Source of the DNA: an uncultured Streptococcus sp.
GTDB lineage: Bacteria > Bacillota > Bacilli > Lactobacillales > Streptococcaceae
Strand: one strand, 5' to 3'
DNA: 64,000 nucleotides
Assembly: GCF_934229725.1 (NCBI RefSeq)
Contig: NZ_CAKQDX010000010.1
This document shows positions 19,789-23,252 of the stretch, one piece after another; the first letter of the stretch is position 1, and each line of letters opens with the position of its first letter. The notes beneath the pieces were generated by a model that did no database searches, had not been told where the DNA came from, and saw nothing but the letters and a program-made list of their open reading frames with translations. The position numbers and the translations under genes were made by a program.

Positions 19789-21894
19789 TTATCTAGCATC
19801 TTTTTCTTTGATAACCAAGACACCATCTTCCATATCAGCTTCCAGGTGTTTAGCATCAAGGTTATCCAAGTGGAAGTCTGTGACTTTGTCACGGATTTGT
19901 TGTTCAACCACACGACGGAGTGGACGAACACCCATGACTTCATCGTAGCCTTCTTCAGTCATGTACTCTTTTGCAGCTTCGCTAACTGCCAAGTCAATTT
20001 CTTTCTTAGAAAGGGTCTTATTGACATCTACCAACATCAAATCAACAATCTTAGAAAGGTTTTCCTTGCTCAAGTGTGAGAATTCAATCACAGCATTGAA
20101 ACGGTTCAAGAATTCTGGACGGAAGTAAGGTTTCAAACGATCCAAGAGTTCTGGTTTGTCCGCATCATCTGTCAAGTTAGCTTCATAACCAAAGCCAGCG
20201 TTTGAAGTTGCGATAATGACAGTGTTCTTGAAGTTTACAGTGTTACCTTGACCATCAGTCAAACGGCCATCATCCAAAACTTGAAGGAGAAGGGTGATGA
20301 CTTGAGGGTCTGCCTTTTCAATTTCATCAAGAAGGATGATTGAATAAGGGTTACGGCGAACACGTTCTGTCAAGGTATTGCTATTGTCATCATAACCAAC
20401 ATAACCAGCTGTTGTACCAATCAATTTAGAAACGGCTGTGCGGTCACTGTATTCTGACATGTCCAAACGGATGATAGCATCTTTTGTACCGAACATATCA
20501 AGGGCCAATTGTTTAGCCAACTCAGTTTTACCAACACCAGTTGGTCCTACAAAGAGGAAGCTACCAATTGGGCGGTTACCTTCATCGAATCCTGCACGGT
20601 TACGACGGATGGCACGTGCCACTGCTTCAACGGCCTTATCTTGACCGATAACCTTAGTTTGCAAACGGTGACCCATATCTTTCAAACGTTCGATATCAGT
20701 TGCACCCATTTGAGATACTGGAATACCAGTCATACGTTCTACAGATTCAGCCACATCATTTACGGTCGCAGTCACCTTGTGATCTTCTGCATGGTTAGCA
20801 ATTTTCTTTTCAAGTTTTTCAATACGAACCTTAGCATTTAGGGCTGCTTCGTAATCTTCTTTAGCAGCTGCAGCTTCTTGTTTAGCTTTTTCTTCTTCGA
20901 TTTCACGTTCAACAGCATTGACATCAGTTACTGGATGTTGTGCTGCCAAGTGAGCTGCTGTCACATCCACGAGGTCAATAGCCTTATCTGGCAAGCTACG
21001 TTGTGGAATGTATTGTACTGAGAAATCAACCGCTGCTTTCAAGACATCATCTGGCAAGATAACATTGTGGTGTTTTTCATAAAGATCACGGATACCTTGG
21101 AGAATCTTGAAAGTATCTTCAGCAGAAGGAGCATTGACCTTAACTTCGTTGAAACGACGAGCTAGGGCAGCGTTCTTCAAGATAGTGTTACGGTATTCAT
21201 CTTGAGTTGTTGCACCAATAACTGTCAATTCCCCACGTGAAAGAGCAGGTTTCAAGATATCAGCAAGACCTTTAGATCCTTGACCATCGCCAGTGCTTCC
21301 GGCACCAAGAATTTGGTGGATTTCATCGAAGAAGAGGATAATGTTTCCAGCTTCTTTGACTTCGTTTACCAAGTTTTGAATATTTTCTTCAAAGCTACCA
21401 CGGTATTGCGTACCAGCTTCGAGTCCAGAAATATCGATTGAGATGATTTCTTTGTTCTTGATGGCAGCTGGGACATCACCATTAACGATGGCTTGTGCCA
21501 AACCTTCAACTACGGCTGTTTTACCAACACCAGCATCCCCGACAAGGACTGGGTTGTTCTTGGTACGACGAGCCAAGATTTCGCAAGCTTCTTGGATTTC
21601 TTTGTTACGTCCAATGACAGGATCCAATTTACCTTCACGAGCTTCTTCAGTCAAGTTACGACCAAGTTTAGCAAGGATACCATCTTGTTTAGGTCCTTTA
21701 GCTTGTTGTTGAGTTGGGTTCACTGCTTCACCTTCATTACCAGGCAATTGACCTGTTTGACGGTAAATCGCAAATTCTTCAGGTGTCACTTCACGACCAT
21801 TAATCATGTAACGACGGTTTTCTGAACGGTAACCACCCATGTTACCCATCAATTGATTGAAAAGATCATCCATATTATTAAAGTTGTTGTTCAT
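19789..21894 (-). CDS. clpL: ATP-dependent Clp protease ATP-binding subunit ClpL (AAA+ chaperone)
   Basis: 701 aa. N-terminus [22 protein letters not shown] typical of ClpL. Two AAA+ modules ([15 protein letters not shown] and [15 protein letters not shown]alker A motifs). Confidence 0.95.
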
Positions 21895-21956
21895 ATAATT
21901 ACCTCATACTGTGTTTTCTTGTGATTTTTTAAGTGTTATTTTTTAGTTCATGTGTG

Positions 21957-22540
21957 AATTTTGACTTTTACTGACCAAAACCCTAAAAATTTTTAGTAGC
22001 CTCAACTACTCTTCTAATAATTTCCGGTTTTGCTCTTGGTAGAAGACTGAGAACTTTCACAGTCTTGAATAAATTATCATTTAGCATAAGAGCCACCTTC
22101 TTTCTGTGAATCTCTCAAAATAGCTAACTTCCAAGCTTCTTTCAGAAAGAAACTTGTAGATTAAGGAAACCTTTTTCCTTATAGCTTTATCATATACCTT
22201 TCATCTGCTTGGGTCAAGAATTTAGTTTTGACTTTTACTGACCTTTCAGATGAAAATTTTTGCAGACTAGCTGCAATCCTTTTTTATTGGTATATGGGCT
22301 ATTGACATAGCCTTCATAAGGATTTCATTTCCTTATGTTTATATTGTACAACATTGGTCAGTAATAGTCAATAGTTTTTTTGACTTTTTTTGACCTTTAT
22401 TGTAAATATTTTTGCAGGCAAGCTATAATTACCTTTTTACAAGGATTTAGGCTAGCACTGCAAGATTTATAAGGAGGTAAATCCTTATGAAACTATCATA
22501 CACCATTAGTCAGGAAAGGTCAATAGTTTTGTTTGATCTT
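21957..22540. promoter_or_regulatory. Cluster of CtsR-type heptad direct-repeat operators in repeated promoter modules upstream of clpL
   Basis: Six boxes read by eye: GGTCAGTAAAAGTCAAA (rc of 21958-21975), the same motif again near 22232-22249, GGTCAGTAATAGTCAAT (22358-22374), GGTCAAAAAAAGTCAAA (rc of 22377-22393), GGTCAATAGTTTTGTTT (22518-22534, poorer match) and GGTCAAAAAAGATCAAA (rc of about 22531-22547). These match the CtsR consensus A/GGTCAAAnAnA/GGTCAAA. Plus-strand TTGTAA-18-TATAAT (TATAAT at 22427-22432). Confidence 0.6.
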
Positions 22541-22598
22541 TTTTGACCTTTTTGAGAATAGTTTCCGAAAAGCAAAAAAAGCCCTACCAGAGGTAGAC

Positions 22599-22853
22599 CT
22601 AATAATGATCTTTAAAAGATAGAAAGGCAACGTTTTTACCATCAACCATATAAATCAAACGATTTTCAGCATCAATTCGTCGAGACCAAGCTCCTTGAAA
22701 GTCATACTTCAAGGGTTCTGGCTTACCAATACCTGAAAAAGGATCCCGTTGAATGTCTTTAATCAGCTTATTAATTCGCTTAAGTGTCTTTCTATCCTGA
22801 TTTTGCCAATAGCAGTAATCTGTCCATGCGTCTTCAGTAAAAGTGGGTAACAT
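22599..22853 (-). CDS. yoeB: Type II toxin YoeB (Txe/YoeB mRNA interferase)
   Basis: 84 aa. ...AWTDYCYWQNQDRKTLKRINKLIKDIQRDPFSGIGKPEPLK...RRIDAENRLIY is characteristic of YoeB. Follows yefM by 4 nt. Confidence 0.9.
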   Translation of the reverse strand: MLPTFTEDAWTDYCYWQNQDRKTLKRINKLIKDIQRDPFSGIGKPEPLKYDFQGAWSRRIDAENRLIYMVDGKNVAFLSFKDHY

Positions 22854-22856
22854 TTT

Positions 22857-23111
22857 CTACTCCTTTAGTGCATGTTCCTGAATTTTCCCAGCACGCACCT
22901 GAGCCATTCCTCTTAAAACCTTGTCTGATAGTTCTTTATTTTGAACAATTCGCAATGTTTCTTGAATGCTATCCCATTCACTCTTTGAGACCACTACAAT
23001 ATCTTCATCAGGATTTTTATTAACTACAGTTAGAGGTTCAAATTCATCATTAACCTTTTTCATATAATCCTTCAAATGATTTCGAAACGTTGAATAGACG
23101 ACTGCTTCCAT
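22857..23111 (-). CDS. yefM: Type II antitoxin YefM (Phd/YefM family)
   Basis: MEAVVYSTFRNHLKDYMKKVNDEFEPLTVVNKNPDEDIVVVSKSEWDSIQETLRI is a typical YefM. Start at the second ATG (23111), which has a properly spaced GAGG. Confidence 0.9.
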   Translation of the reverse strand: MEAVVYSTFRNHLKDYMKKVNDEFEPLTVVNKNPDEDIVVVSKSEWDSIQETLRIVQNKELSDKVLRGMAQVRAGKIQEHALKE

Positions 23112-23252
23112 TAGCATACCTCATTTTCCTCTTTTCTTTTATTATATACCAAAAGGATAAACTTGTCAGGAACTTGTACAACTTTATTCTTTCTATTACA
23201 TTTATTCGAAAAAAGATTAAAAAAGCCTACCAGAGGTAGACCTTCTACAAAG

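Follow-up and report, generated by a model that had tools for sequence, protein, structure and literature searches.

Introduction

CtsR is a heat-labile repressor. In Bacillus subtilis its multi-operator targets are class III heat-shock clp ATPase genes in which heptad operators cluster around a sigma-A promoter, in part beyond the transcription start, and targets such as clpE reportedly carry several CtsR sites. Streptococcal clpL is under the same repressor: it belongs to the CtsR regulon in S. thermophilus, where deletion of ctsR derepresses clpL (PMC3192767), and in S. pneumoniae it is counted among the genes of that regulon (PMC6560143). Here we analyze the region upstream of clpL in a 64,000-nt stretch of DNA from an uncultured Streptococcus sp. 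(contig NZ_CAKQDX010000010.1 of assembly GCF_934229725.1), which we call the window. The 701-aa clpL coding sequence occupies 19789..21894 on the minus strand and is separated from yoeB by a gap of 704 bp; we identify the segment 21895-22598, which reads on the minus strand toward clpL, as the control region of this gene in a salivarius-group Streptococcus. From its sequence and its conservation we consider it probable that this region holds three tandem CtsR-repressed promoters directed at clpL, together with an operator inside the leader and an upstream open reading frame (uORF). CtsR control of streptococcal clpL is already established and the core of this finding is ordinary; what appear to be undescribed so far are a conserved uORF ahead of clpL and the fact that the salivarius group has the whole promoter fixed in triplicate.

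The 5' region of clpL has been described in two related species. In S. thermophilus a CtsR box lies 44 bp upstream of the clpL start obtained by primer extension (PMC1409795). In S. pneumoniae D39 the clpL-5' RNA is 287 nt long and comprises the 5' untranslated region (UTR) and 19 codons, and the T7 primer for this RNA begins at TAAGGTAAATGAAAGCCTTAC / TAAGGTAAATGAAAGCCTTACTAGAACAC (Pettersen et al. 2026, PMC13173289). The same study places pneumococcal clpL mRNA under post-transcriptional control by a mechanism that is unexplained (PMC13173289). In the operon table of D39V, operon_132 spans 306329-308723 (2395 nt) and lists clpL alone, the gene being 2106 nt long (Slager et al. 2018, PMC6212727).

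Results

In order to locate CtsR operators we searched both strands of the whole window with the literature consensus RGTCADNNANRGTCAD and took dinucleotide-preserving shuffles as the chance level. Five perfect boxes and one with a single mismatch were found within 21961-22548, with no perfect box anywhere else in the 64 kb (shuffles: mean 0.11, maximum 2). An earlier sequence-only reading of this DNA had placed six CtsR-type boxes upstream of clpL, and all six are present beyond chance; where it had counted four of them in 22100-22460, there are three full boxes. The gene-proximal box 1 (GGTCAGTAAAAGTCAAA, 21961-21976, feature 21960..21976), box 2 (22228-22243, feature 22227..22243) and box 4 (GGTCAAAAAAAGTCAA, 22380-22395) are perfect matches in direct orientation on the minus strand, as is box 6 (GGTCAAAAAAGATCAA, 22533-22548) apart from its one mismatch. 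Boxes 3 (22356-22371) and 5 (22508-22523) are perfect and inverted, on the plus strand, and box 4 lies 8 nt upstream of box 3. The window boxes follow the tandem heptad RGTCADN-NAN-RGTCADN. A heptad repeat, an overlap of operator and promoter and a clp gene downstream, three sequence features of a CtsR-regulon promoter, are all found here, and we read the boxes as the predicted CtsR operator cluster of clpL.

A promoter scan and a composite pattern both pointed to three sites on the minus strand, P1 (TTGACC-17-TATGAT, 22189..22217), P2 (TTGACT-17-TACAAT, 22343..22371) and P3 (TTGACC-17-TATGAT, 22495..22523). Each matches the consensus at 10 of 12 positions with a 17-nt spacer, and the predicted starts at ∼22182, ∼22336 and ∼22488 would give leaders of ∼288, ∼442 and ∼594 nt, respectively. 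The composite pattern TTGAC-N18-TAnnnT-N7-TAAGG occurs in the window exactly three times without mismatch, at 22217, 22371 and 22523 and always on the minus strand, versus 0.17 expected. Direct boxes 2, 4 and 6 sit 8–10 nt upstream of the -35 of P1, P2 and P3, respectively. In P2 the -35 and the spacer fall within inverted box 3, and in P3 they fall within inverted box 5. The spacing of the three promoters (152 and 154 nt) amounts to one per unit of a tandem repeat. A repeat finder returned one pair of 83 nt at 71% identity (22330-22412 and 22482-22564), one pair of 52 nt at 77% (22226-22277 and 22378-22429), and a triple of 36 nt at 75–78% that consists of a box and an A/T tract and has one of its copies at the gene-proximal box. 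Start-to-start spacing is 152 nt, which gives a unit of ∼152 bp in about three copies. This confirms the duplicated promoter modules that had been proposed earlier to form the operator cluster, but the unit is longer than the ∼60 bp proposed for two or three of them. Read toward clpL, a unit consists of a direct box, 8–9 nt, an inverted box that supplies -35 and spacer, the -10, 7 nt, and a TAAGG...CCTTA stem-loop. Judged by its sequence, P1 has lost the inverted box.

When the three units were aligned with their counterparts ahead of clpL in S. pneumoniae, S. oralis, S. infantis and S. mitis, the elements GGTCA, TTGAC, TGAC of the inverted box, the TA of the -10, TAAGG and CCTTA proved invariant or nearly so. 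The alignment shows each window module to be a homolog of the one clpL promoter found in these four species, and we therefore read the modules as three clpL-directed promoters with predicted starts. S. pneumoniae and S. mitis share the head-to-head box pair exemplified by boxes 3 and 4, and in ∼40 loci of the S. pneumoniae, S. mitis and S. oralis type the pair lies near -290/-270, with a lone box near -58. A dispersed repeat of the BOX or RUP kind was considered as the origin of the modules and rejected: boxes and composite pattern occur nowhere else in the 64 kb, and the alignment with the orthologous clpL promoter also contradicts it.

The pneumococcal locus is the closest match in layout. 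From the direct box, the -35 inside an inverted box and the -10 down to clpL, the order of elements in D39 is that of the window, and both have a 5' hairpin, a uORF encoding KPEI(I/V)RRV, a hairpin with a T tract and a proximal CtsR box. They differ in that pneumococcus has one module whereas the window has three in tandem, the gene-nearest one without its inverted box, and in the upstream neighbor, which is yefM-yoeB in the window and another coding region, ending just upstream of the module, in the pneumococcal locus L036. The sequence at which the T7 primer begins is the hairpin directly after the distal -10 of the pneumococcal locus, and from this hairpin to the end of the reverse primer used in that study we count 287 nt in L038, L067 and L070, in exact agreement with the published RNA, and 291–292 nt in other loci. 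The length of the D39 RNA, the start of its primer and the size of operon_132 therefore point to the double-box module as the D39 clpL promoter, with a leader of ∼230 nt. S. thermophilus resembles the window as a member of the salivarius group, its sequenced ClpL N-terminus (PMC1409795) is that of the window protein, and its box has the same sequence, TTGACTTTTACTGACC. The distance from box 2 to the predicted P1 start is 44 bp, the same as that from box to start in S. thermophilus.

To follow the modules among relatives we assembled 17 salivarius-group sequences, namely the window, L001, L002, ten loci with the same uORF peptide and four with a variant peptide. The three modules are kept in all 17. 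Hexamer conservation was judged on 13 aligned sequences of the group, in which the hexamers of P1 are unchanged and those of P2 identical in 13 of 13; the -10 of P3 reads TATGAT, TATTAT or TATTGT. The P1 spacer (22195-22211) is polymorphic within the species, existing as CAAGCAGATGAAAGGTA and TGGTCAAATGAAAGGTA (the loci concerned are L082-L084, L086 and L088), and the TGGTCAAATGAAAGGTA form restores a GGTCAAA half-site inside the promoter that is without an inverted box.

Each predicted transcript begins with a hairpin encoded on the minus strand. H1 (TAAGGAAA-AAGG-TTTCCTTA, 22162..22181; -6.8 kcal/mol, z -2.2) stands at the start of the P1 transcript and is homologous to the 5' end of the D39 mRNA, TAAGGTAAATGAAAGCCTTA. 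The corresponding hairpins of the other two modules are H2 (CATAAGGA-AATGAAA-TCCTTATG, 22315..22337; -8.6 kcal/mol, z -4.2), whose stability was reached by none of 200 shuffles, and H3 (ATAAGGA-TTTACC-TCCTTAT, 22469..22488; -6.9 kcal/mol, z -2.3). The pair beside the invariant core is paired in every version, with A-T changing to T-A or T-G between the groups. The TAAGG/CCTTA core itself is invariant in 21 distinct versions from two streptococcal groups while the loop varies, and this invariant inverted repeat at +1 could be a protein-binding site, in DNA or RNA, and not just a stabilizing stem. H3 of this strain alone carries ACCUCCUUA, where the other 16 genomes have AGCUUCCUUA or similar. 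ACCUCCUUA presumably matches the anti-Shine-Dalgarno end of 16S rRNA, and the UUACCUC of this H3 is complementary to the clpL ribosome-binding site GAGGUAA; the variant is probably a neutral single-nucleotide polymorphism.

Two further minus-strand hairpins lie within the region. The inter-module hairpin TTGCAG-CTAGT-CTGCAA with its A/T tract (22260..22276; -5.9 kcal/mol, z -0.4) was flagged as terminator-like on both strands but folds weakly, and GCTAGTCT plus an A/T tract recurs in the pneumococcus just where the sequence leads up to the proximal box from upstream. The hairpin AGTAG-TTGAGG-CTACT, followed by A5T5 (21986..22010; -7.3 kcal/mol, z -0.95), overlaps the end of the uORF and has a stronger pneumococcal counterpart (-10.5 kcal/mol, z -3.0). 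Both window hairpins are weak, the A-run parting stem from T-run, and the consensus structure of the 21986-22010 hairpin shows one pair with changes on both sides, in a single sequence. A riboswitch or RNA thermometer spanning the whole leader was dropped as a candidate since the leaders fold about as shuffles do (z -1.4 for the P1 leader, z -0.6 for the pneumococcal one). Rfam at its gathering threshold gave nothing relevant over the whole window, and at E<=1 the sole match in 21800-22700 was StyR-44 with E 0.91, which is chance level.

Box 1 differs from the other boxes in its surroundings. It lies 66–82 nt upstream of the clpL ATG. Loci of the salivarius and mitis groups have an equivalent box between -53 and -82 relative to the ATG, and its position is kept in every locus of the CtsR type. 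The promoter scan found no acceptable -35/-10 after box 1 in the window, and none is conserved at this place in the mitis group. Box 1 thus appears to be an operator inside the transcribed leader and not a promoter box.

Between P1 and box 1 lies the uORF, which encodes 34 aa (MLNDNLFKTVKVLSLLPRAKPEIIRRVVEATKNF, 22087..21983, minus strand) and is preceded by the ribosome-binding site GAAGGTGG (22093..22100, minus strand); relatives have the equivalent AAGAGGTG or AGGGGTG. We surveyed 80 related clpL loci and observed an open reading frame (ORF) with a ribosome-binding site at a fixed position, 167–193 nt upstream of clpL, in every one of them. Near the C-terminus, 62 of the 80 carry KPEI(I/V)RRV, exactly or with one residue changed, while the N-terminal half varies freely. 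Among 12 distinct DNA versions of the eight-codon motif, third positions vary in six codons, first positions in three and second positions in one. Proline is encoded by CCA, CCT, CCG or CCC and arginine by CGT or AGA, and the uORF variants of the salivarius group carry changes only outside AKPEIIRRVV. Synonymous changes prevail over nonsynonymous ones in the motif, in a small sample in which the RRV codons double as the 5' arm of the hairpin, and the substitutions as read from these alignments have the pattern of a translated sequence.

Some strains depart from this pattern. In S. mitis bv. 2 SK95 (L080:3796-3880) the uORF is frameshifted (MLNLTDFEKKMIEGLFKKKNQKLYVE) and KPEIIRRV is lost, and four S. 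mitis-type loci read KPEIVPRV. The motif is thus dispensable in some strains, because it is lost or altered in these loci. The exact peptide of the window is encoded on at least 1000 contigs, where it is named only 'hypothetical protein'. Four uORF peptides matched no family in Pfam or NCBIfam, and the peptide without its methionine, compared with 1.84 billion representatives, gave five matches, three of them salivarius-type variants, which did not extend the family. The uORF is unannotated in D39V, our literature search found no published description of a clpL uORF, and the accessible part of the supplements of the D39 Ribo-RET study does not contain the peptide.

The sequence-only reading had drawn attention to the opposite strand, where it saw the best promoter of the region, TTGTAA-18-TATAAT, pointing away from clpL into a 19-codon ORF behind a perfect Shine-Dalgarno site. 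This promoter-like site does exist (22400..22429, plus strand), but its TATAAT lies at 22424-22429 and not at 22427-22432, it is not beyond chance, and the three minus-strand sites, at 10/12 with a 17-nt spacer, are equally good and read as canonical promoters aimed at clpL. The 19-codon ORF (MKLSYTISQERSIVLFDLF, plus strand) is likewise present, at 22487..22546 rather than 22488-22547, and is the antisense reading of P3, covering its start region, both hexamers (-10 and -35) and box 5. The Shine-Dalgarno-like TAAGGAGGT (22470-22478, plus strand) and the ATG are the complement of H3, that is, the 5' hairpin of clpL read backwards. Conservation in the 17 salivarius-group sequences is poor for each part: the promoter is found in three (window, L001 and L083), TAAGGAGGT in the window only, with TAAGGAAGC or TAAGGAAGA on the plus strand of the other 16, and the full 19-codon frame in three (window, L084 and L086), with 1, 3 or 9 codons in the rest. 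Promoter and full frame are combined in the window only. The paralogous frame in the second module has 9 codons, and the longer frame of the window is due to a single C-for-A difference, which weakens box 5 as well. Neither a conserved frame, start and Shine-Dalgarno site nor a conserved promoter was found for the small ORF among the 17 sequences, and on these comparisons we judge both the plus-strand promoter and the ORF to be incidental.

The genes on either side bear on the limits of the control region. The clpL ribosome-binding site GAGGTAA (21899..21905, minus strand) is kept as GAGGTAA or GAGGTAT in all relatives compared. The window ClpL shares 99% identity with the S. raffinosi protein and 90–94% with mitis-group proteins, which, together with its N-terminus, assigns the window to the salivarius group; an exact look-up of the protein returned no record. 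Upstream, on the same strand as clpL, lie yoeB (22599..22853) and yefM (22857..23117), and the terminator hairpin of yoeB (22583..22597, minus strand, from the promoter/terminator scan) marks the upstream limit of the clpL control region. yefM-yoeB is absent from L091-L094, which retain all three promoter modules; there the modules adjoin the terminator of a HIGH_NTase1 gene, whose hairpin is the same as that of yoeB. In the window, near-identical terminator hairpins, AAAAAAGCC(C)TACCAGAGGTAGACC, flank yefM-yoeB at 22575-22600 and 23220-23246, while L091-L094 have one copy after HIGH_NTase1 and no toxin-antitoxin cassette (L091:941-1000). Because the terminator is present twice in the window and once in these relatives, the cassette appears to have been inserted here, with duplication of the terminator. 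The proximity of yoeB to the modules is then an accident of this insertion, since L091-L094 keep the modules without it, and the earlier suggestion of a small ORF or RNA acting antisense or adjacent to a toxin gene loses its partner there. In L090 (846-1781) an insertion sequence with an rve-family transposase lies between HIGH_NTase1 and yefM.

Discussion

The architecture suggests the following sequence of events. At normal temperature CtsR dimers would occupy the head-to-head operator pairs over the -35 regions and occlude the promoters, and upon heat stress CtsR would leave the DNA. Transcription of clpL could then begin at up to three starts, should all three promoters be active. Each of the resulting leaders would open with a stabilizing 5' hairpin, and all would carry the uORF, which is presumably translated. 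The role of box 1, within the leader, may be that of a roadblock or of a cooperative site. Compared with clpE of B. subtilis, where extra operators surround one promoter, it is the whole promoter that is duplicated in the window, with operator pair, -35, -10 and 5' hairpin.

Several observations weigh against three working promoters. The promoter scan overall gave 10 sites versus 5.4 ± 3.0 in shuffles and is not enriched. P1 is without the inverted box, although its direct box, -35, -10 and hairpin remain. The 5' end of the D39 RNA is drawn from primer design and the operon table, and the 44-bp distance of S. thermophilus, which we fitted to P1, roughly fits a start ∼44 bp downstream of box 1 too and so does not discriminate. 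The S. thermophilus papers report a single box (PMC1409795, PMC3192767) and one start (PMC1409795), and going by the published description only, tandem modules, a proximal operator and a uORF go unmentioned. Finally, the weak hairpin and T-tract elements at 22260-22276 could stop P2 and P3 transcripts before clpL. It may be, then, that one module only drives clpL, most likely P1 as the nearest, and that P2 and P3 are decaying duplicates which serve at most as extra CtsR sites or whose transcripts end at the inter-module hairpins. Such a state is consistent with the single, ancestor-like module of the mitis group, with the terminator-like hairpins between modules, with the S. thermophilus literature, and with the drift of the P3 -10 among strains and the imperfect boxes 5 and 6 of some genomes. 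On the other side, decay is not what P2 displays, as its hexamers do not vary and it is nearer than P1 to the ancestral double-box architecture; the inter-module hairpin folds weakly, and three copies persist over species-level divergence, including genomes without yefM-yoeB. We regard a single working module as rather unlikely.

Two other readings concern different promoters. The sequence-only reading had offered as a fallback that the true clpL promoter lies at box 1 (21960-21976) and gives a short leader, the distal modules being non-functional remnants. The conserved position of box 1 in all CtsR-type loci favors this, and the A-rich TAAAAAAT (21924-21931) is a possible -10 that would put the start ∼42–44 bp downstream of box 1, near the 44 bp of S. 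thermophilus. However, TAAAAAAT is without an acceptable -35, the scan shows no minus-strand promoter there, the mitis group conserves neither hexamer after its proximal box, and the pneumococcal leader of ∼230 nt runs from the distal module. A uORF with its own ribosome-binding site between distal module and box 1 is moreover sensible only if that stretch is transcribed, and we find a promoter at box 1 very improbable. A still fainter chance attaches to a CtsR-controlled plus-strand promoter (22400-22429) that yields a 19-aa peptide, an RNA antisense into yoeB, or both. Its hexamers, TAAGGAGGT and the ATG-initiated frame are all there in the window, and a plus-strand transcript would continue into yoeB, whose terminator lacks a T-run when read in that direction. 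Against it stand the rarity of every part among the 17 sequences and the absence of a second genome with promoter and ORF together, the 9-codon paralogue in module 2, the complementarity of Shine-Dalgarno site and ATG to a conserved 5' hairpin and of the ORF body to the P3 -10, -35 and box 5, and the relatives that have the modules and lack yefM-yoeB. An antisense RNA of clpL in S. pyogenes was also considered and is unrelated, arising from convergent transcription at the 3' end.

With three tandem clpL-directed promoters as the preferred reading, the uORF would lie in every leader. That it is a cis-acting regulatory leader peptide between CtsR promoter and clpL in both groups is a tentative and rather unlikely proposal drawn from position and codon pattern. 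Because the U-tract hairpin just upstream of box 1 takes its 5' arm from the final codons of the uORF, ribosome occupancy or stalling there could set read-through or clpL mRNA stability, and the uORF might also be linked to the way in which pneumococcal clpL mRNA is controlled post-transcriptionally. Another option is that the peptide works in trans, as a small partner of ClpL. A clpL uORF across two streptococcal groups, pneumococcus included, is a cheap and testable lead, and it is worth testing since the post-transcriptional control of pneumococcal clpL mRNA has no explained mechanism. If the leader-peptide role is true, it would put a translation-sensing layer on top of CtsR control. Box 1, as a putative leader operator, alters the design of clpL reporter constructs and of probes for electrophoretic mobility shift assays.

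Module duplication is also found outside the salivarius group. The S. mitis loci L029, L030, L044, L052, L054 and L060 have two double-box modules upstream of clpL, and their copies vary by strain, whereas the triplication of the salivarius group has a 152-bp period and is fixed in 17 of 17. The S. mitis duplication is independent of the triplication. Taken together, the fixed triplication and the independent S. mitis duplications suggest that selection has repeatedly favored clpL output that is higher or more switch-like. The duplicated S. mitis modules lie ∼200–600 nt upstream of clpL, and the sequence between them ends in TTTGAAGAGATTTTCGAAGAGTATAA, which we take to be BOX-element-like.

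A different arrangement was observed in clpL loci of the S. parasanguinis/australis type (L003:3620-3977; L004-L013, L019, L026-L028, L040, L047 and L053). In these the 1.5 kb ahead of clpL are free of CtsR boxes. They carry four copies of A(A/T)TTATGTAAA around a TTGACA-17-TATAAT promoter and the ribosome-binding site, and the position of the uORF, -174, is taken by an unrelated one of 18 aa, MLFPELRQLIDKRKNRNC. In the S. parasanguinis/australis lineage, control of clpL thus seems to have passed to a different regulator.

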